A stretch of 64,000 nucleotides of DNA from positions 69,393 through 133,392 of the forward strand of contig QCRN01000002.1 of assembly GCA_003211835.1 (NCBI GenBank), read 5' to 3'. Shown here piece after piece: positions 5,327 through 54,341 of this stretch. The stretch comes from Pelagibacteraceae bacterium AG-461-B04 (GTDB taxonomy: Bacteria > Pseudomonadota > Alphaproteobacteria > Pelagibacterales > AG-422-B15). A model generated the notes under the pieces. It worked only from the letters and a program-made list of their open reading frames with translations, made no database searches and was not told where the DNA came from. The stretch's first letter is position 1, and each line of letters opens with the position of its first letter. Position numbers and translations under genes: made by a program.

Positions 5327-5403
5327 TGGTAGCGGGAGAGGGATTTGAACCCCCGACCTAAGGATTATGATTCCTCCGCTCTAACCAACTGAGCTACCCC
5401 GCC
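5327..5403 (-). tRNA. tRNA with CAT anticodon (elongator Met; an Ile2-lysidine identity cannot be excluded)
   Basis: Reverse complement folds by hand as a cloverleaf: GGCGGGG-TA-GCTCAGTTGGTTAGAGC-G-GAGGA-ATCATAA-TCCTT-AGGTC-GGGGG-TTCAAAT-CCCTC-TCCCGCT-ACCA. CCA is encoded. Confidence 0.85.
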
Positions 5404-21229: not shown

Positions 21230-21306
21230 TGGTGCGCCCAGAAGGATTCGAACCCTCAACCCTCAGATCCGAAGTCTGATGCTCTATCCAGTTGAGCTAT
21301 GGACGC
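21230..21306 (-). tRNA. tRNA-Arg (TCG)
   Basis: Reverse complement: GCGTCCA-TA-GCTCAACTGGATAGAGC-A-TCAGA-CTTCGGA-TCTGA-GGGTT-GAGGG-TTCGAAT-CCTTC-TGGGCGC-ACCA. Confidence 0.85.
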
Positions 21307-42977: not shown

Positions 42978-44888
42978 TTAACTAGTCTGCGGTTTGGGCT
43001 TGAAACTAGGAACAACTGTTGATGGTTTTCCACTTTTAGGTACGGATGGACCAGCATTGCTAATTTCTTCTTCTGGGTTTGGTCTGTCAATTTTTCCATC
43101 CTTAAGTAGCGATAATATTTCGTCTCCATTCAAAGTTTCGTATTCAATTAAGCCTTTTGCAAGAGCATGAAGATCGCTAATTTTATCAGTAAGGATCTTC
43201 CTTGCAAGATCATAGCACGTATCAACAATTATTCTAATCTCAGAGTCAATCAATCTCGCTGTATCTTCTGACACATTTTGATGTTTTTGAACTGATCTAC
43301 CTAAGAAAACTTCTTCCTCGTTTTCACTATACTGAAGTGGTCCCAGTTTTTCACTCATTCCGTATTTGGTGACCATATTTCTTGCCATCTTGGTTGCCAT
43401 TTCTATATCAGAGGATGCGCCTGATGTTACTTTGTCGTCACCAAAAATTATTTCTTCTGCAACTCTTCCTCCCATGGCAACAGTGATATCAGCAAGCATT
43501 TTTTCTCTCGCCATTGACAACTGATCTCGCTCAGGCAATCTCATAACCATTCCTAGGGCTCTACCACGTGGTATGATTGTAGCCTTATGAATTGGATCTG
43601 ATGCAGGTTGGTTTAAAGCAACAATAGCGTGACCACCTTCGTGATAAGCTGTTAATTCTTTTTCTTCTTGACTCATTACAAGAGATCTTCTCTCTGATCC
43701 CATCATGACTTTATCTTTTGCTTCTTCGAAATCTACCATCGTCACAATTTTTTTATTTTTTCTAGCAGCAAGTAATGCAGATTCATTGACAATATTAGCT
43801 AAATCAGCTCCCGAGAAACCAGGAGTTCCCCTTGCGATTGTTCTAATATCTACATCAGGCGCAACTGATATTTTTTTAATATGAACTCTTAGAATTGCTT
43901 CTCTACCCATAATATCTGGATTTGGAACTACCACTTGTCTATCAAACCTGCCAGGTCTTAATAAGGCTGGGTCTAATACATCTGGTCTGTTTGTTGCAGC
44001 GACCAATATAATGCCTTCTTGAGTATCAAAACCATCCATTTCTACAAGAATTTGATTTAACGTTTGCTCTCTTTCATCATTGCCACCACCAAGACCTGCA
44101 CCACGACTTCTTCCAACAGCATCAATCTCATCAATAAATATTATACATGGAGAATTTCTTCTTCCTTGCTCAAACATGTCTCTAACTCTTGAAGCGCCCA
44201 CGCCAACAAACATTTCTACAAAGTCAGAACCCGAAATTGTAAAAAATGGAACACCAGCTTCACCCGCAACAGCTCTTGCTAAAAGCGTTTTACCTGTTCC
44301 AGGAGGGCCTATTAACAATGCTCCTTTTGGAATTCTTCCGCCAAGCTTTTGAAATTTTCTTGGATCCTTTAAAAAGTCTACAATCTCTACGAGTTCTTCC
44401 TTAGCTTCATCTATTCCTGCTACATCATTAAAAGTTACTTTATTTTTGTTTTCAGTTAAAAGTTTTGCTTTCGATCTACCAAAACCCATTGCTCCACCTC
44501 TACCACCTTGCATTTGTCTCATGAAGAAAATCCATACACCTATAAGCAATAGCATAGGAAACCATGAAATAAGTACTCCCAGAAGTGAAGGATAGCCATC
44601 GTCAAGAGGAGCAGCAGAGATATTCACACCTCTTTCATTTAACCTGTCTACAAGAGTAGGGTCGTTTGCAGCATAGGTCTTAAAAGAACGGCCGTCATCT
44701 AATGCACCATTAATATTGCTACCTCTTATAACTACATCTTTGACTGACCCAGCTTCTACTTCATCAAGAAATTGAGAATATGTAAGATCAATGACATTTC
44801 TCTCCCCGCTGGTGTTGCTGAAAAGATTAAATAGACCAAAAACGATAAGGGCAATAAATACCCATAGTGTAATATTTCTGAAATTCAT
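42978..44888 (-). CDS. ftsH: ATP-dependent zinc metalloprotease FtsH
   Basis: 636 aa. Walker [12 protein letters not shown], Walker [32 protein letters not shown], zinc site HEGGHA. Confidence 0.95.
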
Positions 44889-44980
44889 TTTTATTTTCCA
44901 TTATATTAAATAATTACTATTTTGCTTCATGCAAGAAAAGAAAGGTATAAATTTTAACAATATATATCAATTGCTTAACA

Positions 44981-46072
44981 CTAATAATGCTCGATTAATT
45001 TTGGCCAATTCTTATTTTTAAAAATTACTTTCAAATTCTGTCCAAAAAGTGGGCTACTTTTTTTTTCTTTTGAGATTAAGATTTCGTCATTTTTAGCAGT
45101 AAATATACATCCATTTAAAGTATGACTTTTAAAATTTCTGGTGTTAATTTTATCAATAAGGCTTTTTAGAGACCTGGATCTGGGCACTTTATCCTTATTG
45201 CCTACAAGACGACAAAGTTTATTGATAATACGATATTGTATTTCAACTGGCGCTTTTTTAAATTTTTTATTATTAAACTTTAAAGTGTTATTTCTACTCA
45301 GTGAAATACATTTTTTTAAATAATTATTAACTGACACAGTAATTGCTTCATCTGCTTTTTTTAAATTTTGTATAACTTCTAAAATTCTTTTTTTATCCAA
45401 CCCCTCATTAATTAAATTTTCAGCAATCGCTCTTATACGAGACCTATCGTACTTCATATCTTGATTTGTGTTATCATAAATATAAGGTTGCTTCATTTTT
45501 GCTAAATATTTAATCAAACATTTCTTTGAATATTTTAATAAAGGTCTAACAATGCTTATCTCTCCTCCTTTATACTTAGATACTGGCTTTAAAGATGATA
45601 AGCCCTTTATTCCGCTTCCTCTTACCAACCTCATTAAAAATGTTTCAATCTCATCGTCTAAATGATGAGCAGTCAATAAATATTTAAACTTATTTGTTTT
45701 ACAAACATCTGTTAATAGTTCATACCGATGTTTCCTGGCTGTTGAAAGTGTATTAGAGCTACTTATTTTTTTAATAACTTTTTTTGAAACAAAGCTTACT
45801 TTTTCTTTTTTCATAAGCTTCTTTATCCATTCAATTTCTTTAGGCGAGTCTTCACGCAACCTATGGTCTATTGAAATAGCTATAAGCTTTAAATTATTTT
45901 TTTTTACAAAATTTTTAGCCAGGTATAAAAGTGCTAAGCTATCTGGACCACCTGAAAGAGCAACGGCAAAGTTTGTATTTATACCAACAAGCTTGAGTTC
46001 TTTTTCAAAATCTTCATCTGTGATCTTATCTATATTTTGATAATTAATTGGCTTAACTAATTTCACAGCCAT
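44981..46072 (-). CDS. tilS: tRNA(Ile)-lysidine synthase
   Basis: 363 aa. PP-loop ALSGGPDSLAL, then TAHHLDDEIETFLMR. Confidence 0.8.
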   Translation of the reverse strand: MAVKLVKPINYQNIDKITDEDFEKELKLVGINTNFAVALSGGPDSLALLYLAKNFVKKNNLKLIAISIDHRLREDSPKEIEWIKKLMKKEKVSFVSKKVIKKISSSNTLSTARKHRYELLTDVCKTNKFKYLLTAHHLDDEIETFLMRLVRGSGIKGLSSLKPVSKYKGGEISIVRPLLKYSKKCLIKYLAKMKQPYIYDNTNQDMKYDRSRIRAIAENLINEGLDKKRILEVIQNLKKADEAITVSVNNYLKKCISLSRNNTLKFNNKKFKKAPVEIQYRIINKLCRLVGNKDKVPRSRSLKSLIDKINTRNFKSHTLNGCIFTAKNDEILISKEKKSSPLFGQNLKVIFKNKNWPKLIEHY

Positions 46073-47090
46073 TTCTTTTTATTTCTAAGTTGCTTCTATC
46101 AATAATTGAAGGATTAGCTTCAGGGTATGACTCTTGCAGTTGCATAAATGTTATACATCCCTGTTCTTTCTGTTGCATGTTTATTAATGAAATTCCTAAT
46201 TTCAATAGAGCATCTGGTGCCTTGTTTGCACTTGGAAAAGTTTGATAGAGACTTAAATAATTCTTAGCAGCATCCTTATAGTTTTCTCTGACATAATAAG
46301 TCTCAGCTAGCCAAAAATGTGAATTGCTTAAATAATTTTTATCATCTCCAATGGTAATAAATTCTGTAAACGCTTTTTCTGCTGTTTCATAGTCACCTTG
46401 CTTAAGTAAATTAATAGCATATTCATACTGACTTTTTTCATCACTCTCCGGCAGTATTGATAAAAGCGTTGGTTGCTCCCCAAGGGACACAATATTATCT
46501 TGCGATATTGTATTAATAATTTGTTGTTCCTCACCTTCATTATTAATTTTTACTTCAAAAGGTGACTTTTCTTCTTTAGGTAAGCTTAACATATTTATAG
46601 TTCCAAGTGATTTTGGTTCTAAATCTAATTTATCTTCATTTGCTATAAACATTTCACTTTGCATTACACTCAAAGTATTAGGTTGGGCATTATTTTGAAC
46701 TTTTTCTATATTCTCAGCTTTAGTGTTTAAATCTGTAAATCTATACTCTGCATCTTCTTTAAATGTGTTAAAATTGTTAACAGTAGATTGCATTGTAAAA
46801 ATCATTTCTTCAATTTGGGCTGTTAGAGATTGAATTTCATTTTGAAGTTCTGCTATTTGAATAGATTGTTTTGCAATAATTGATTGATAATCATCGAGGC
46901 TTAGATTATTTGCTTGGCCAGAAGTTGTATTGTTAAAAGTAGCTTTTTCAAGAACCTTGATTCTACTTTCGATTGTTTCTAACTTTTGAAAAAGTTGATC
47001 TAATGGGATGTCTTCTGCATAGAGATATGAATTAAATGTTATAAGCGCTATCAAAGTAACACAAGTATATAGACAAATCTTATTGATCAT
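46053..47090 (-). CDS. cpoB: Tol-Pal system protein CpoB/YbgF (coiled coil plus TPR)
   Basis: 345 aa. Signal peptide, N-terminal coiled coil, and C-terminal TPR region (YEYAINLLKQGDYETAEKAF, FWLAETYY, APDALLKLGISL). Positioned after pal. Confidence 0.7.
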   Translation of the reverse strand: MINKICLYTCVTLIALITFNSYLYAEDIPLDQLFQKLETIESRIKVLEKATFNNTTSGQANNLSLDDYQSIIAKQSIQIAELQNEIQSLTAQIEEMIFTMQSTVNNFNTFKEDAEYRFTDLNTKAENIEKVQNNAQPNTLSVMQSEMFIANEDKLDLEPKSLGTINMLSLPKEEKSPFEVKINNEGEEQQIINTISQDNIVSLGEQPTLLSILPESDEKSQYEYAINLLKQGDYETAEKAFTEFITIGDDKNYLSNSHFWLAETYYVRENYKDAAKNYLSLYQTFPSANKAPDALLKLGISLINMQQKEQGCITFMQLQESYPEANPSIIDRSNLEIKRNGCEIS

Positions 47091-47162
47091 AAAAATAAAT
47101 ATTTTTTATAAGCCTAGACTTATCTTTTGTCTAAATAAAGGCGTGAATAATTAAATATCTAT

Positions 47163-47705
47163 TTAATTTGTTCTTACAGTTACCGATCTTCTGTTTTGTG
47201 CCCAGGCCTTTTTGTTTGAGCCGCTATTCACGGGTCTTTCCTTACCAAAGCTGATAGTGGTAACCCTGCTAGAACTAATCCCTTGTGTCATTAAATAATC
47301 TTTAGCAGCGTTAGCTCTGCGATCTCCGAGTGCTAAGTTATATTCTCTAGTTCCTCTTTCATCAGCATGACCTTCAATCGCTATTGTAGCTGATCCATTA
47401 GCTTTTAACCATTTCGCCTGTTTTTCTAATGTATTTTGCGCAGCTTTAGTAAGTGAGTAGCTGTCGTATGCAAAAAATATTCTATCAGGAACATCGACCG
47501 CTAACATTTCAACAGTATCTGATCCAACATAAACACCATCTACAATTTCTACAGCTGCGGTTGATGTTGATGTAGTTGAAGTTGCGGATTCTTTCGGCAC
47601 AGTTTCACAAGCTGCCAAAAACAAAGCACATAATATAATTACCAAATATCTGGTATAATTCTGAAAGGTTGAAACCATTTTAATAAACTCCCGTAATATT
47701 TTCAA
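47163..47705 (-). CDS. pal: Peptidoglycan-associated lipoprotein Pal (OmpA-like)
   Basis: Lipobox LFLAAC. OmpA-like domain IEGHADERGTREYNLALGDRRANA and NRRSV. The true start may be the internal Met (MVSTFQ). Confidence 0.85.
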   Translation of the reverse strand: MKILREFIKMVSTFQNYTRYLVIILCALFLAACETVPKESATSTTSTSTAAVEIVDGVYVGSDTVEMLAVDVPDRIFFAYDSYSLTKAAQNTLEKQAKWLKANGSATIAIEGHADERGTREYNLALGDRRANAAKDYLMTQGISSSRVTTISFGKERPVNSGSNKKAWAQNRRSVTVRTN

Positions 47706-47800
47706 AGCCGTTAGTACTCTATTAACTTAACTTGCACAAGTCTAGGATAAAGTTATTACATATTCCTTAAAATATCTCTAATTTCCAGGCAAAATTGATC

Positions 47801-49123
47801 TTATTGTATTAATTTTGACCAAGATGGGTCAGATGCGTCAACCGGTGTAATAATTTTTCTCTCGTTAAACCCAGTCAGATCAATAGACCAAATGGATGAA
47901 GAGTGGCCGTCCCCTGCATCATTTGCTTTTGTTTCACGATAAAATATTAATACCCTTCCATTAGATGACCATGATGGCGCTTCTTGATACCAGTTTTCAG
48001 TTAGCAATCTTTCACCACTTCCATCAGTTCTCATAACTCCAATAAAATATTGACCCTGATAAAACTTAGTAAAAGCAATAAGATCGCCTCTTGGGGACCA
48101 AACAGGAGTTGCGTAGTTCCCTCCTTGTTTCGAAATTCTTTTTTGATTTCTTCCATTGCTGTCCATTACATAAATTTGTTGGGAACCACCTCTATCCGAA
48201 TTAAATGTAATTCTTTTACCGTCAGGTGAATAACTTGGGGATGTATCGATTGCTGGACTATCAGTTAGTCTTTCAACAACGCGAGTTGTTAAATCCATGA
48301 CATACAAGTCAGAGTTACCCTCTCTTGCTAAGCTCATAATAATTTTTTCTCCATCTGGAGAAAATCGAGGTGCAAAAGTCATACCCGGAAAATCGCCAAC
48401 AACTTCTTGTATTCCTGTTTGTATATTTAATAAGTAAACTCTAGGCAGATTTTTAAAATATGAGAGATATGTAATCTCTTGTCTTACAGGATTAAACCTA
48501 GGAGTTAATACTAATTCTTTTCCACTCGTTAAAAATTTATGGTTAGCGCCATCTTGATCCATAATTGCCAGTTTTTTTATTCTTTTGTTTTTTGGACCTT
48601 CTTCAGCGACATAAACTATCCTTGTATCAAAATAACCTTCCTCACCTGTAAGTCTCTCATATATTTTATCTGCAATCATATGACTAATTCTTCTCCAATT
48701 ATCAATTGTTGTAATAAGAACTAATCCCTCTATTTCTTTTTCTGCAAATGTATCCCATAAACGAAACTCTACTCTTAGCCTATCCTCTTCAATGGCAAGT
48801 TCACCTGTAAGCAACCCTTGAGCTTTTATTAATCTCCAATCCGCAAATCTTGGTTTTAAATGCATGGCACGATTATTTTGAATAAATGCCTTATTATCTA
48901 CTGATGAGAACAATCCACTTCTTTCAAGGTCATCAGAAATTACTGTTCTAATATTTTCTGTTATTTTTTTATCTATAATTTCAGGGCTATTATCGTGAAA
49001 GAACTCACTTATAGCAAGAGGAAGAGGTTCTCGATTACCCTCGGTGATATCAATTTCAATTAACGCATATGAAATATTAGTAAATAATATTAAAGGAACT
49101 AAGTATAGTAATAATTTTCTCAT
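47801..49123 (-). CDS. tolB: Tol-Pal system beta-propeller protein TolB
   Basis: 440 aa. Repeated propeller blades ([44 protein letters not shown]). Confidence 0.9.
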
Positions 49124-49125
49124 AA

Positions 49126-49938
49126 TTAACCTCTTAGTATCTCTCTTGGATCAAAATTCAACTGTAAATTTTTCCAATTATCATAGCGCTCGGCTTCTGG
49201 CGCTTTAATTGGATCACATCGTCTGACTGCCCTAAGAGCACTCTCTGCGAGTGTTCTAAAATATTTTTCACCCGGCTTATTCATCCGTTCGTGTTGAACA
49301 ACTTCTGGTGGCTTTAAAAGTGATCCATCTGTATTTAAAAATATTTTAATTTTTACAATCATAGTTTCATCATATGGGATTCCAAGCGGTATGCTCCAAC
49401 ATTGCATAAATTGTGCTCTAATTGCATCTTCCTCACTTAGAGTTAGTCGTTTATCTAGACTCGGCGTTGAATCAAGAGCTTCATAATCCTTTTCAACAAT
49501 ATCTTCTGGATTTGCTTGCTTTGTGTCTTTTTGCTTATCAATTAACTCAGCTAGCTTTAGAGGATCAAATTTATCTTTCTTTTTTATTTCTGGCTTCTTA
49601 ACTGGCATATTTTGCATCATTTTTTCCTCAATCTTTATAGTTTCAAGTTTTTCTTCTGTAGATGGATCTTTCACTTTTTCATTTGATTTTTCTTCTTTTG
49701 GCTTTTGAATTGGTTGATTTAATTTTTGTTCCTCTTTTTTATTTTCTTTTTCCGGTTTTTCATCCTCTTTCTTTTTACTAATTTGAGGCACATTTGTTTT
49801 TTCTGCGATTTCTATCAGTTCAACTTGAATGATAGGTGGCATCTCAAGTTCGTTATTATTAAATAAGGGAAGTGAAACTATTGTAAAAAAAAGGATGAAT
49901 GAGTGAAGTAATACTGATCCTACAACTGAAATTCTCAT
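49126..49938 (-). CDS. tolA: TolA-like protein
   Basis: 270 aa. N-terminal TM helix, a long Lys/Glu/Pro-rich linker, and a small C-terminal domain. Positioned between tolR and tolB. Confidence 0.65.
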
Positions 49939-49954
49939 ATTTGAGTCCCATTAA

Positions 49955-50359
49955 TTAATCACTTACAGGTTTTGTAATTAAAGAAACTTTTGAAAAGCCT
50001 GATCCAGATAACTCCCCAAGTACTCTCATCACTTTTCCGTAATCAATTGCTTCATCTCCTCTGACATATATCTTTGTATCTAATCTATTATCAGTGATTG
50101 CCTTTATTTTAGGAATTAATTCACCCAGTGCTATTTCTGTTTCTTGAATATAGATTGTACCAGCCTCATTGATTGTTACTTCCATTGGCTCATCATCAGA
50201 CTGAAGTGAGTCAGCATTACTCTCAGGAAGATCTACTTGCACACCTACTGTTAATAATGGAGCAGTAACCATAAAAATTATCAGCAGAACTAACATTACA
50301 TCAACAAAAGGTGTAACATTTATATCGCTAAAAGGTTTTGAATGAGTGTTTCTGGTCAC
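49955..50359 (-). CDS. tolR: TolR (ExbD/TolR family)
   Basis: 134 aa. Motif INVTPFVDVMLVLLIIFMV. Confidence 0.85.
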   Translation of the reverse strand: MTRNTHSKPFSDINVTPFVDVMLVLLIIFMVTAPLLTVGVQVDLPESNADSLQSDDEPMEVTINEAGTIYIQETEIALGELIPKIKAITDNRLDTKIYVRGDEAIDYGKVMRVLGELSGSGFSKVSLITKPVSD

Positions 50360-50375
50360 CTAAAAAATCTTGTGT

Positions 50376-51080
50376 CTATTTTGCATTAAGTCCTCTTGAA
50401 AAAATGACATTAAAATGCTCTTTAAATCTATACATTCTGGCGTTCTCATCATTCACCTGACTTGTGAAAATATTATAGGCAATTACAGCTGGTATTGCCG
50501 CTAAGAGTCCTAGAGCTGTTGCAAAAAGAGCTTCTGCTATTCCTGGCGCTACTACTGCTAAGGATGTATTTCTTGATATTGCAATTGACTGAAAAGAATT
50601 CATTATTCCCCAAACGGTACCAAAAAGGCCAATAAAAGGTGTGGTTGCGCCTATAGTTGCAAGATAGCTAAAGTGTAGTGAGAGTTTTTCATTTTGATAA
50701 TCAATTGCAGCTTCCATTATTCTATTAATTCTATCAATAATGCTTTCAATATTTTTTTTGCCATCTTTATTAGACTTTTCAATTTCATCTACTGCCTCGA
50801 GAAAAACATACTTTATAGGACTCTCTGAAAGATGGTGTGTAGTAGATGCAATTTCTTTAATGGAACGTCCTGACCAAAATTCTTCCTCAAATTGTTTACT
50901 GATTTTTTTTAAAGATCTAAAAAGCCTTATTTTGTGAATAATAATTGTCCATGAAAATATTGATGCAGCGAATAATATTAAAATTACTAATTTCACTACT
51001 AAATCTGCTCTAAAGAAAAGAGACATTAAAGTGAACTCATCATTAATTTGACTTGTACTTATTAAAGCTTCATTTTCCAT
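50376..51080 (-). CDS. tolQ: TolQ (MotA/TolQ/ExbB proton channel)
   Basis: 234 aa. Motifs [19 protein letters not shown] and [13 protein letters not shown]. Confidence 0.88.
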
Positions 51081-51119
51081 GGTATCAATTTAAAAGTAAA
51101 AATTGTCTTAAATAGGGCA

Positions 51120-51503
51120 TCATGTATCAGTCTTCTTACTTTCAAGAAATATTTTATATAGTTCTATAAAGTCATTTAATCTTAAAACACACAATGAATT
51201 ACCAGTTGTTTCCCTATTTCTTCTAGTAATTACCACGGGAAATGAGTCTGATTTAGACGTTTCAATATTTTCTTCGACTTGCTTAACAGACTCATGGATT
51301 TTAAATTTTTCAGTTCTCTTTGCCTCAACATAAATATAAGGAGTGTTTTTTAAATCGCTTCCTCCTGAAGATTTTATTGCTCCACCACCAGACAGCGGCA
51401 TTCTTTGTACGAGATCATCTCCATCAAAAACTTTTTCGTTAAAATATTTAGCTAACTCTCTTTCATATCCATCACCTTTTCTTTTTGGAGAGCTACCTGG
51501 CAT
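51120..51503 (-). CDS. Archaeal-Hjc-like PD-(D/E)XK nuclease, putative Holliday junction resolvase
   Basis: 127 aa. KRKGDGYERELAKYF ... VQRMPLSGGG ... SDL ... YVEAKR reproduces the Hjc pattern KRKG-x2-3-ER / V-x-R-x-P-x-SG / D / (I,V)ExK. Occupies the ruvC slot between yebC and tolQ. Confidence 0.55.
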   Translation of the reverse strand: MPGSSPKRKGDGYERELAKYFNEKVFDGDDLVQRMPLSGGGAIKSSGGSDLKNTPYIYVEAKRTEKFKIHESVKQVEENIETSKSDSFPVVITRRNRETTGNSLCVLRLNDFIELYKIFLESKKTDT

Positions 51504-51571
51504 AAAAACGAATCAAATTTATCAATTCATTAAAGACTAATTAATATATTAAGATTTTAAAAGTTAATTAA

Positions 51572-52315
51572 TCAAGCAATTCTGCTTAATTCTTCATCGT
51601 TAGCCTCAAAATTTGAAAATATATGCTGAACATCTTCGTCACTATCAAGCTCGTTTATAAGATTTATAAGTGATTTCAACCTATCACCTTCAACTTTAAC
51701 TAATATATTTGGTCTCCACTGAAAACCAGATGAGACTGGCTCACCATATTTAGAAGCTAACAAGTCGTAAAACTTTGACAATGCATCAGGTAAGCATACC
51801 GTTTCATATTCATCCTCTTCTAAGAAACAATCTTCCGCGCCATTTTCAATTGAAAAGTTAAAAAACTCATCCTCAGTCGTAATATCCTTGTTGAATTTCA
51901 GAAAACCATAATGTTTAAATGCATGAGAAACCGAACCTGTTTCACCCAATGATCCGCCAAACTTTTGAAACGTTGATCTGACATTAGATGCTGTTCTGTT
52001 TCTATTATCAGTCAGTGCCTCAACAATTATAGATGTACCTGCTGGGCCAAATCCTTCATATCTCATCTGGTCATAATTAATAGTATCTTTCTCTAAAGAC
52101 TTTTTTATAGCACGATCAATATTCTCTTTTGGAAAACTCGATGCCTTTGCAAGTTGAATGGCCGATCTCAATCTAGCATTTTGATTAGGATCTGGTGAAC
52201 CTAACTTTGCTGCAACAGTTATTTCTTTGGATAACTTAGAAAATAGTCCTGCTCTTTTTTTGTCTTGCGCTCCTTTTCGGTATTGAATATTTTTAAACTT
52301 AGAGTGACCCGCCAT
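51572..52315 (-). CDS. yebC: YebC/PmpR-family DNA-binding regulator
   Basis: 247 aa. N-terminus MAGHSKFKNIQYRKGAQDKKR. Confidence 0.9.
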   Translation of the reverse strand: MAGHSKFKNIQYRKGAQDKKRAGLFSKLSKEITVAAKLGSPDPNQNARLRSAIQLAKASSFPKENIDRAIKKSLEKDTINYDQMRYEGFGPAGTSIIVEALTDNRNRTASNVRSTFQKFGGSLGETGSVSHAFKHYGFLKFNKDITTEDEFFNFSIENGAEDCFLEEDEYETVCLPDALSKFYDLLASKYGEPVSSGFQWRPNILVKVEGDRLKSLINLINELDSDEDVQHIFSNFEANDEELSRIA

Positions 52316-53116
52316 TTAGTTTCCTATTTTTCCCCCAATACGAATTGATTGAATATTTTTAGCAAGTAAATTGTCATGCTGCGACTCTATGATTACTCCA
52401 CATAATGTGCCTACCCCATCGGCAGGTGGTACTCTTTTTCTTTCAGTGTCTTGTGTTGCAAATTTTCTCACAAATTCTTGTTTTTTCGTTCCTATTACAG
52501 AGTCGTAATCACCACACATACCTGCATCTGTTTGATAAGCCGTCCCATGTTCCATAATAGTAGCATCAGCTGTTGGAACGTGAGTATGCGTCCCTACTAC
52601 CGCGGTGACACGTCCATCAAGATGATGACCCATGGCCATCTTCTCACTCGATGCTTCAGCATGAAAATCTACAAATATGAATGATAAATCTTTTACATCA
52701 ATTTTTTGCAATACCTCCTCGATTTTAAAAAAAGCATTGTCACAGGAGCGCATAAATAAGTTGCCCATTATATTAATAACTGCAATTTTTTCCTTATTGT
52801 CCAGCTCATAAATATTAAAGCCTAGCCCAGGAGATCCTTCCGCAAAATTATAAGGTTTTAATAGATTTCGATCCTTGTCGATGTAATTAGTGATTTCTTT
52901 TTGATCCCATAAATGATTTCCTGTGGTAATGACATTTACACCGTAAGAATACAATTCATTACATATACTTTCTGTAATACCGAAACCACCTGCAGCGTTT
53001 TCACCATTTGCTATTACGAAATCAATATTATTATCAATAATCGCTTGTGGCAGATGATCTCTTAAGGAATGCCTACCAGATCTACCCATTACATCCCCTA
53101 GGAATAAAATTTTCAT
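52316..53116 (-). CDS. YmdB-like metallophosphoesterase (TIGR00282 family)
   Basis: 266 aa. Motifs KILFLGDVMGRSGR, ANGENAAGG, DFHAEASSEK and GTHTHVPTAD. Confidence 0.8.
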   Translation of the reverse strand: MKILFLGDVMGRSGRHSLRDHLPQAIIDNNIDFVIANGENAAGGFGITESICNELYSYGVNVITTGNHLWDQKEITNYIDKDRNLLKPYNFAEGSPGLGFNIYELDNKEKIAVINIMGNLFMRSCDNAFFKIEEVLQKIDVKDLSFIFVDFHAEASSEKMAMGHHLDGRVTAVVGTHTHVPTADATIMEHGTAYQTDAGMCGDYDSVIGTKKQEFVRKFATQDTERKRVPPADGVGTLCGVIIESQHDNLLAKNIQSIRIGGKIGN

Positions 53117-53688
53117 ATTACTTTATATAAATAACTTTCTGTTAAAATCCAATCAAGTTTTTGATCATGACCTTCAATTGGAATTTTATAAACATTTTGA
53201 AAAGAAAATCCTAATCCTACTTTAATAATTTCTTTTTCTTCTTGGAAAGAAAAATATTTATCATAAAAACCTCCACCATATCCTAGTCTAAAACCACTTT
53301 CATTAAATGCTAGTAAAGGCACTAAGACTAGTTTTGGAAAAATAATTTCATTAGTTATCTCAGGTTCTAAAATATTATATTTATTTTTAATTAATTTGGT
53401 TCCAGTACTATATTTAAAAAAATTAATTTCATTAGTTTGATAATCAATTTTAGGTAAGCAAATATTTAAATTTTTTTCAATCAAGTATTTATGTATAGCA
53501 TTAGTACTTAATTCAGAATTATAATCGATATATGAACCTACATAATCACTATTCATATTATTTAATAATGGACGTAAATGAACGTGAGACATATTTTTTT
53601 CTTCATAATCTCTTGATAGGTGCTTTCTTCTATTGATTAAAAATTTGCGTAATATTTTTTTTTCTAGATGATGCTCTGTATTAATCAT
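53113..53688 (-). CDS. 5-formyltetrahydrofolate cyclo-ligase
   Basis: 191 aa. Motif VPLLAFNESGFRLGYGGGFYDKYF. Lies downstream of zapA, as in E. coli zapA-ssrS-ygfA. Confidence 0.75.
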   Translation of the reverse strand: MINTEHHLEKKILRKFLINRRKHLSRDYEEKNMSHVHLRPLLNNMNSDYVGSYIDYNSELSTNAIHKYLIEKNLNICLPKIDYQTNEINFFKYSTGTKLIKNKYNILEPEITNEIIFPKLVLVPLLAFNESGFRLGYGGGFYDKYFSFQEEKEIIKVGLGFSFQNVYKIPIEGHDQKLDWILTESYLYKVI

Positions 53689-53711
53689 TAATATTAATGA
53701 TTAGAAATTTT

Positions 53712-54077
53712 TTAACTTGCCTGTGAAAGCTTAGATAGTAAATCTGTTAATTTTTCATTATTAGTTTCAATGTATTTTTGACTTTCCATTTGTTGTTGGT
53801 CTAAAATTTTTTCTTTTGAATTAATACTTGTTTGAAGCTCTTCAATCTTAGTCAAATTTGAACTTAGTTTTTGATTAAGGTCGTGTATCTCATCAGCAAT
53901 CAGCAACGAAGCCATTACCATGAGCCTTGTTTCACCTATTTTTCCAAATCTTTTGGTCAATTCTCTGACTTTAAAGTCAATTCGCGAACTAAGTTGCTTT
54001 AGGTGATTTTCTTCACCAGGATCGCAAACTATCGCATAATCTTGATCATTAATATTTACAACTATTTCAGGCATCAA
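53712..54077 (-). CDS. zapA: Cell division protein ZapA
   Basis: 121 aa. N-terminal VNINDQDYAIVCDPGEENHL, then RLMVMASLLIADE and a C-terminal coiled coil. Confidence 0.75.
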   Translation of the reverse strand: MMPEIVVNINDQDYAIVCDPGEENHLKQLSSRIDFKVRELTKRFGKIGETRLMVMASLLIADEIHDLNQKLSSNLTKIEELQTSINSKEKILDQQQMESQKYIETNNEKLTDLLSKLSQAS

Positions 54078-54341
54078 TTATGAATCCAATATGTCTTTAA
54101 TTGTATAAATGTTTTCATCAAGCTGAGATGAGATATTTCCGGCAATATTTTTGAGCTCTAGAAAATCAGATTTTAAGATTTTAATTTCGTTTTCAAGGTG
54201 GTTATTTTCACTCAGAAGTTTTGCATTTTCATTTTCTAGAGACGAGACTTTTTTTGCTTCTTGTGACAATTTTTCAATCTCTCTGCCAAGGTTAGCAATG
54301 GTATTACTGAATTGATCTTTAGTATCTTGATATGTTGACAT
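54078..54341 (-). CDS. Small coiled-coil protein (DUF4164/ZauP-like by position upstream of zapA)
   Basis: 87 aa with heptad-rich sequence. Abuts zapA with zero spacing. The call rests on context only. Confidence 0.4.
   Translation of the reverse strand: MSTYQDTKDQFSNTIANLGREIEKLSQEAKKVSSLENENAKLLSENNHLENEIKILKSDFLELKNIAGNISSQLDENIYTIKDILDS

Follow-up and report, generated by a model that had tools for sequence, protein, structure and literature searches.

How are Holliday junctions resolved in a bacterium whose chromosome, at the place where relatives carry ruvC, ruvA and ruvB, holds one small gene of another kind? The question is raised by a 64-kb stretch of the genome of the SAR11 bacterium Pelagibacteraceae bacterium AG-461-B04 (contig QCRN01000002.1), referred to here as the window, in which a single open reading frame (ORF) encoding 127 residues lies between yebC and tolQ. 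The analysis suggests that this gene specifies a PD-(D/E)XK endonuclease of the Hjc type that was captured once from a phage by an ancestor of the SAR11 lineage and that now acts as the Holliday junction resolvase in place of RuvC, a reading to which we assign a probability of roughly 70%. A broader proposition would be that the whole RuvABC system, including the near-universal RuvAB branch-migration motor, was discarded in favor of one 14-kDa phage-derived Hjc-type resolvase, and that a second streamlined lineage independently did likewise with a different PDDEXK_15 gene; we hold this at about even odds.

Four Genes Replaced in Place by One

In this SAR11 lineage, the four genes ruvC, ruvA, ruvB and ybgC have been replaced in place by one gene, because three outgroups with identical flanks carry the block in the same slot. 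The outgroups are alphaproteobacterial contigs with a guanine-plus-cytosine content (GC) of 47–64% (L265, L273/274 and L275/276), which were reached by searching with the YebC of L051, the SAR11 locus that diverges most. Their order, DUF4164-zapA-fthc-ymdB-yebC-RuvC-RuvA-RuvB-YbgC-tolQ-tolR-tolA-tolB-pal, matches the flanks in the window gene for gene, and 2746–3136 bp separate the yebC stop from the tolQ start in the outgroups, as against 491 bp in the window. The Ruv and thioesterase identities were confirmed with Pfam for L265 and taken from the precomputed Pfam labels of the loci for L273–L276; against Pfam RuvC, the outgroup gene in the slot scores 152 bits. The following features define the locus in the window.

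51120–51503, minus strand: gene for an Hjc-like PD-(D/E)XK nuclease (Pfam PDDEXK_15), a candidate Holliday junction resolvase; based on the ORF, PF24608, PHROG 244, profile-to-PDB comparison, the structural model and the ratio of nonsynonymous to synonymous substitution rates (dN/dS)
51572–52315, minus strand: yebC (TACO1/YebC family), the upstream flank; 37% identity to Escherichia coli YebC and 50% to Sinorhizobium meliloti YebC, with Pfam labels via L001
50376–51080, minus strand: tolQ, the downstream flank; 47% identity to S. meliloti TolQ, with PF01618 in L001
51504–51571, minus strand: spacer of 68 bp separating the nuclease gene from yebC, the coding strand of which shows neither a promoter-like nor a terminator-like site; too short for ruv remnants
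51081–51119, minus strand: spacer of 39 bp separating tolQ from the nuclease gene, likewise with neither kind of site on the coding strand
42978–54341, minus strand: conserved same-strand string comprising an 87-residue ORF, zapA, fthc, ymdB, yebC, the nuclease gene, tolQ, tolR, a tolA-like gene, tolB, pal, cpoB, tilS and ftsH

The flanking genes were identified by tblastn and from the Pfam labels of L001, a nearly identical locus. The nuclease gene has an ATG start and 384 bp, and its 14-kDa product, which begins MPGSSPKRKGDGYERELAKYFNEKVFDGDDLVQRMPLSGGGAIKSSGGSDLKNTPYIYVEAKRTEKF, has a predicted isoelectric point of 8.6. It is the sole ORF of plausible coding quality inside the 491-bp interval; an earlier interpretation made from the letters of the window (the sequence-only reading) had described a lone 127-residue gene between yebC and tolQ, and both the ORF and its flanks are as described there. 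Co-transcription with yebC and tolQ is plausible, because all genes from the 87-residue ORF (54341) through ftsH (42978) lie on the same strand.

The sequence-only reading had also named yebC-ruvC-ruvA-ruvB-ybgC-tolQ as a common alphaproteobacterial order. That order is real in the three outgroups and, with a few inserted genes, in S. meliloti (L180, CP090106.1), and a gammaproteobacterial metagenome contig (L135) shows it as well. It is not universal in the Alphaproteobacteria, however, being absent in Paracoccus (L262, CP038202.1). As a separate observation, the S. meliloti and Paracoccus sequences are PLSDB "plasmid" records of 1.5–3.7 Mb that carry the core chromosomal genes ruvAB, yebC, tolQR and tRNA ligases; the records hold chromosomes or chromids under a plasmid label.

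Relationship of the Encoded Protein to Hjc

Judged from its sequence, the 127-residue protein is an Hjc-like PD-(D/E)XK nuclease of a phage-centered sister family. Over residues 7–117, it matches PF24608 (PDDEXK_15, phage putative PD-(D/E)XK endonuclease) with 29.1 bits against a gathering cutoff of 27 (E = 1.1e-6), and the same model matches 62 of 67 diverse relatives. PHROG 244 is matched at 2.2e-20. Membership among the RusA, RuvC or RecU proteins is ruled out, the corresponding Pfam families (PF05866, PF02075 and PF03838) giving no match to the protein even at E ≤ 10; no NCBIfam model matches it. The name under which it passes in the Joint Genome Institute (JGI) pipeline is "Holliday junction resolvase."

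The label of PHROG 244, "RusA-like Holliday junction resolvase," is a misnomer. Its members in this analysis resemble PD-(D/E)XK/Hjc proteins and show no similarity to Pfam RusA, and the label may mislead annotation.

The homologs of the protein number 249, and two profiles were compared with the sequences of solved structures. Profile A1 consists of 54 close homologs, and profile A2 of 67 representatives out of the 1413 family clusters (50% identity) obtained by an exhaustive HMMER search. With A1, Sulfolobus Hjc (4tkd) ranked first among PDB sequences, at E = 0.21. With A2, hmmsearch returned Hjc 4tkd at E = 5.5e-5, followed by 1hh1 (3.9e-4) and 4tkk (1.6e-3) and then by Hjc_15-6 (7bgs), ST1444, Pyrococcus furiosus Hjc and Hje, so that the top seven PDB matches are all Holliday junction resolvases. 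Alignment with hhalign to residues 1–79 of Sulfolobus Hjc gave probabilities of 91.9% and 94.2%.

In the A1, A2 and hhalign alignments, E14, D50, E60 and K62 stand in register with E12, D42, E55 and K57 of Hjc, the latter numbers being counted on the aligned Hjc sequence, and the KRKG arm and the R-x-P-x-SG loop align with Hjc as well. Both profiles show D50, E60 and K62 without variation and E14 in 90% or more of the sequences; in A1, the invariant positions include K7, K9, G10, R34, S38, G39–41, D50, E60, A61, K62 and R63, among others. The motifs that had been read off the sequence, K7-R8-K9-G10, E14/E16, VQRMPLSGGG (residues 32–41), S49-D50 and E60-A61-K62, are each found at the residues given for them, and the PF24608 match, the A2 ranking and the aligned catalytic E, D and E-x-K bear out the assignment to Hjc-like PD-(D/E)XK nucleases that had been made from them. 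Two elements of the gene correspond to these motifs.

51318–51464, minus strand: catalytic core codons (E14, 51462–51464; S49-D50, 51354–51359; E60-A61-K62, 51318–51326)
51474–51485, minus strand: N-terminal basic arm K7-R8-K9-G10, a presumed DNA contact, aligned with the Hjc KRKG ("KKRKG")

A model of the protein calculated with AlphaFold2 has a mean confidence score (pLDDT) of 84.6 and a predicted template-modeling score (pTM) of 0.77, and it contains the alpha-beta-beta-beta-alpha-beta nuclease core. Among the predicted viral structures in BFVD, matches reach E = 8.6e-10 with template-modeling (TM) scores of 0.74–0.78, and several of them are annotated as Holliday junction resolvases.

Conservation in SAR11 and Phage Relatives

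The nuclease gene is an old, vertically inherited and constrained core gene of the SAR11 lineage. Genomes were scanned as one per species; in all 47 SAR11 genomes in which the gene was found, each single-cell or metagenome-assembled, it stands in the order zapA-fthc-ymdB-yebC-nuclease-tolQ-tolR-tolA-like-tolB-pal-cpoB, and complete contigs of 1.37–1.39 Mb have the same gene order. The copies are 123–127 residues long and 75–97% identical across the 47 genomes, while YebC drops to 64% and TolQ to 66%. The median pairwise dN/dS of the gene is 0.060 versus 0.046–0.075 for tolQ, tolR, yebC and ymdB, values that are approximate with dS near saturation. With a GC of 0.328 and a third-position GC (GC3) of 0.195, in a host genome of 33% GC, the gene has the same composition as its neighbors, which rules out a recent horizontal transfer.

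These properties bear on whether the gene has a cellular function at all. A small protein that NCBI calls "hypothetical" and that has its relatives in phages might be taken for the product of a decaying prophage remnant or of a chance ORF. This is effectively refuted by the dN/dS of 0.06 together with a gene that is intact in 47 species-level genomes and keeps at least 75% identity while YebC diverges further. The invariant catalytic residues, a composition fully ameliorated to that of the host and the lack of phage genes among the neighbors also speak against it; a prophage remnant is ruled out on the last ground, and we give the remnant or chance-ORF explanation almost no credence.

The nearest relatives outside SAR11 are 45–59% identical and lie on 179 IMG/VR viral contigs with 38–53% GC. 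One of the phage proteins, gp22 of Roseobacter phage CRP-810, is 47.5% identical and is encoded in a replication module beside a primase-polymerase. Genomic copies outside SAR11 number six, and the two whose flanks were examined, in a Rhodospirillales genome and a Bermanella genome (L056 and L057), sit in prophages, where they adjoin terminase, portal, primase and integrase genes. In a neighbor-joining tree, the SAR11 copies form one clade (46 of 46) against 80 IMG/VR and 6 genomic copies. Many phage copies carry 10–70 additional C-terminal residues, often acidic, which the SAR11 proteins lack. Because the SAR11 copies form one clade and their nearest relatives are found in phages and prophages, their history looks like a single old capture of the nuclease gene by the host from a phage. 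Where the sequence-only reading had left the choice between an archaeal and a phage-type resolvase, the phage type fits better, the closest relatives being phage and prophage genes.

A Second Lineage with a Different PDDEXK_15 Gene

A further alphaproteobacterial lineage, marine and AT-rich (L266–L270; 31–32% GC), with a genome of about 1.47 Mb (longest contig, 1.465 Mb), has members that NCBI labels as "Rhodobiaceae," "Alphaproteobacteria" or "Pseudomonadota" bacterium. The gene string zapA-fthc-ymdB-yebC is followed there by the gene for a 169-residue PDDEXK_15 protein and then by ybgC, tilS and ftsH. The slot is thus without ruvCAB; ybgC is retained, and the whole tolQRAB-pal-cpoB block is absent from this position. 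The gene lies directly after yebC at the following positions.

L266, 7423–7932: gene for the 169-residue PDDEXK_15 protein
L267, 1920–2429: the same gene
L269, 1929–2438: the same gene
L270, 1009–1518: the same gene

The 169-residue protein scores 80 bits against PF24608 and is only about 21% identical to the protein of the window, whose subfamily is barely detected in a phmmer search with it. Relatives of its own, 65% and 47% identical, occur on IMG/VR viral contigs, where neither yebC nor ybgC is a neighbor. Since two different family members occupy the exact position of RuvC in two lineages, the arrangement is best explained by functional equivalence with RuvC, the genes having been acquired twice or exchanged by xenologous replacement.

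Weighing the Resolvase Assignment

Several observations count against the resolvase reading, and they concern the protein on the one hand and the fate of the ruv genes on the other. Concerning the protein, the comparison with the Pfam Hjc family that the sequence-only reading had proposed was only partly favorable: there is profile homology to solved Hjc structures, but PF01870 is a weak second match (15.0 bits, E = 0.024) that falls short of the gathering score of 21.1 bits, and it matches only 4 of 67 relatives at E ≤ 0.01. By the Pfam threshold, the protein is assigned to a related family rather than to PF01870. The proposed structural comparison was similarly mixed. In a Foldseek search of the PDB, the best 12 matches are all Hje or Hjc, but with weak statistics (E = 0.02–0.2, TM 0.44–0.47), and RecU structures follow directly at rank 13 with E = 0.2; residues 39–44 of the model are of low confidence. 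NCBI annotates the protein as hypothetical, the name of PF24608 speaks only of a "putative" endonuclease, and we know of no member of that family that has been assayed. Nucleases of the PD-(D/E)XK fold serve many other functions.

Given this range of functions, a domesticated phage nuclease might have another role and merely have landed where ruvCAB was deleted. It could act on branched or damaged DNA, serve as a mismatch or nick endonuclease that compensates for the absence of MutSL, or take part in anti-phage defense; promiscuity on branched DNA is common among phage resolvases (PMC3864405). The affinity in sequence and fold is nevertheless to Hjc, Hje and Hjc_15-6 and not to restriction, Cas4, RecB or NucS nucleases, and two different family members at the precise position of RuvC in two lineages would be hard to explain without functional equivalence. 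Partner genes of a defense system are not seen, the neighbors being yebC and tolQ, as far as can be judged from the neighbors alone without a PADLOC run. We consider another role improbable.

Concerning the ruv genes, searches with RuvA, RuvB and RuvC queries from E. coli, S. meliloti and the outgroups (tblastn) found none of the three in the window or in 57 related loci, where the sole match was the AAA domain of FtsH. These searches covered the 64-kb window and loci of ±6–10 kb rather than whole genomes, and ruvA, ruvB and ruvC may lie elsewhere in these genomes. Metagenomes were scanned with the 27-nt degenerate pattern GGWCCWCCWGGWYTWGGWAAAACWACW, which represents the RuvB Walker A motif in AT-rich codons. 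A RuvB gene is present in 117 of the 120 metagenome loci listed for this pattern (L060–L179), and none of these at least 117 RuvB loci has a SAR11-like neighborhood or groups with the alphaproteobacterial reference, which is weak evidence. Strains of subclade Ia are presumably annotated with ruvABC; no subclade Ia YebC was among the matches of the YebC search from L051. A search for FtsH homologs returned matches that were all at least 93% identical and is uninformative on other SAR11 subclades, and PLSDB holds no SAR11 record.

The literature is of limited help on this point. SAR11 Ic and IIa.A have been described as lacking RecBCD, RecF and MutSL, with Ruv not mentioned (PMC12374537); if the present lineage is among them, that silence could mean that Ruv genes were found there. 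Full-text literature searches found no study of the ruv or Holliday-junction genes of SAR11 or Pelagibacter.

These points leave room for an accessory or back-up resolvase, that is, a functional Hjc-type enzyme in a genome where ruvAB, and perhaps ruvC, have been relocated, so that the enzyme partners RuvAB or works alongside RuvC. Precedents exist in RecU, which works together with RuvAB in Firmicutes, and in the prophage-encoded RusA alongside RuvC in E. coli. Relocation would need extra events, however, the contiguous ruvC-ruvA-ruvB block of the three outgroups and S. meliloti being wholly gone from the slot, and the same block has been replaced in the second lineage. The negative results in the window, the related loci and the metagenome RuvB loci also point away from it, and we regard an accessory role as unlikely. 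It is important to note that the sequence-only reading had named a canonical ruvC elsewhere combined with a lack of profile similarity to Hjc-like nucleases as the outcome that would speak against it; this combination cannot arise, since the Hjc similarity is present.

A Model for RuvAB-Independent Resolution

Based on homology with archaeal Hjc and Hjc_15-6, a simple model would have a homodimer use its N-terminal KRKG arm and its R34/S38-GGG loop to bind the four-way junction. E14, D50 and E60 would hold Mg2+, and K62 would complete each active site, again by homology. The two active sites would then nick opposing strands symmetrically, yielding nicked duplexes that could be sealed by ligase.

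Hjc-type enzymes cut by structure and not by sequence, whereas RuvC needs RuvAB to bring the cognate sequence to it. A structure-specific cutter of this kind would need no RuvAB to bring the junction to a RuvC consensus site. RuvAB would thereby become dispensable, and a streamlined genome could make do with one 384-bp gene in place of the whole ruvC-ruvA-ruvB block and of ybgC. In this model, we infer dimerization, junction-specific cleavage, the role in vivo and the genome-wide loss of RuvAB.

Other Features of the Neighborhood

Several observations on neighboring genes were made in passing. Among close relatives, yebC appears split into two pieces or as its C-terminal part only, in L002 (9193–9936) and L003 (9715–9936), which come from a metagenome-assembled genome and a long-read assembly; these calls probably reflect frameshifts in the assemblies and not true pseudogenes. 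The gene fthc of the conserved string, which encodes 5-formyltetrahydrofolate (5-FTHF) cyclo-ligase (53113–53688, minus strand), has a very low GC of 0.227 and a GC3 of 0.099. It is only 43–54% identical between SAR11 lineages versus 80–88% for neighboring genes, and it thus evolves much faster.

The 87-residue coiled-coil ORF (54078–54341, minus strand), upstream of zapA, matches in position the DUF4164 (PF13747) protein of the outgroups L265 and L273; no Pfam match is recorded for its SAR11 versions. Rfam matches in the window comprise two tRNA genes only (5330–5403 and 21233–21306, both on the minus strand), and no rRNA.

Significance and Comparison with Known Systems

At this locus, a core DNA-repair module of four genes and 2.7–3.1 kb has been swapped in place for one 384-bp gene of apparent phage descent; the outgroups still show the ancestral state of the slot, and another streamlined lineage offers a parallel case. 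Few organisms on Earth are as abundant as SAR11 bacteria, which are known for very high homologous recombination. What stands out is how cleanly the ruvC-ruvA-ruvB(-ybgC) block was exchanged within its slot in a bacterium of global abundance, the kind of enzyme itself being already known. If RuvAB is indeed lacking from the genome, a free-living bacterium would manage without the canonical branch-migration motor. If the broader proposition holds for both lineages, the exchange of RuvABC for a phage resolvase would be a path to genome streamlining that recurs. Combined with the losses of MutSL and RecBCD that have been reported, such an exchange may then also help to shape the unusually promiscuous recombination of these organisms. 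More practically, the protein is a candidate for a minimal mesophilic Hjc-type resolvase, and the "hypothetical protein" entries of the family in Pelagibacteraceae at NCBI can take a provisional name.

The closest solved counterparts are the archaeal Hjc and Hje enzymes (PF01870; 1hh1, 4tkd, 1gef, 2wcw and 1ob8), which provide the best sequence-profile and fold matches among known structures. They are of similar size and share the PD-(D/E)XK core, the KRKG...E-R helix, the R-x-P-x-SG loop, and the D and E-x-K on consecutive strands. Overall identity is low, at 13–16% in the Foldseek alignments and 29–32% over the 69–78 hhalign columns to Hjc 1–79, and the archaeal loop reads SGSKRKDPIP where the protein of the window has SGGG...GGS. 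Hjc is archaeal, whereas the present family is bacterial and phage-borne. The known Hjc partners PCNA and Hjm/Hel308 have no evident counterpart here.

Hjc_15-6 from the Thermus thermophilus phage Tth15-6 (7bgs/7bnx), a phage-borne "archaeal-like" resolvase and an assayed relative, cuts X-shaped DNA, and its authors propose the motif E-SD-EVK (PMC8805305). Its E10-SD39/40-EVK53-55 corresponds to E14-SD49/50-EAK60-62 in the protein of the window. In other respects it differs, being a distant match of A2 (E = 0.012) with 163 residues, a thermophilic phage as its source and possibly a tetrameric state; its gene also belongs to a phage, in contrast to the domesticated chromosomal core gene seen here. 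The phage proteins of PF24608 and PHROG 244, such as CRP-810 gp22, belong to the same family as the protein of the window. Many of their genes lie in replication or packaging modules, in contrast to the SAR11 copies between yebC and tolQ.

RecU of Firmicutes and Mollicutes is the textbook case of RuvC displacement by an Hjc-related PD-(D/E)XK resolvase. It is the next fold match in the PDB after Hjc and Hje. It differs in being larger, with a stalk region, and in belonging to a Pfam family that does not match the present protein; in addition, ruvAB is also gone from the SAR11 locus. RusA, finally, comes from a cryptic prophage of E. coli and shows that a phage-derived enzyme can substitute for RuvABC function. 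It has an unrelated fold, is sequence-selective and normally lies silent in a defective prophage, whereas the SAR11 gene is a fixed and constrained part of the core genome.

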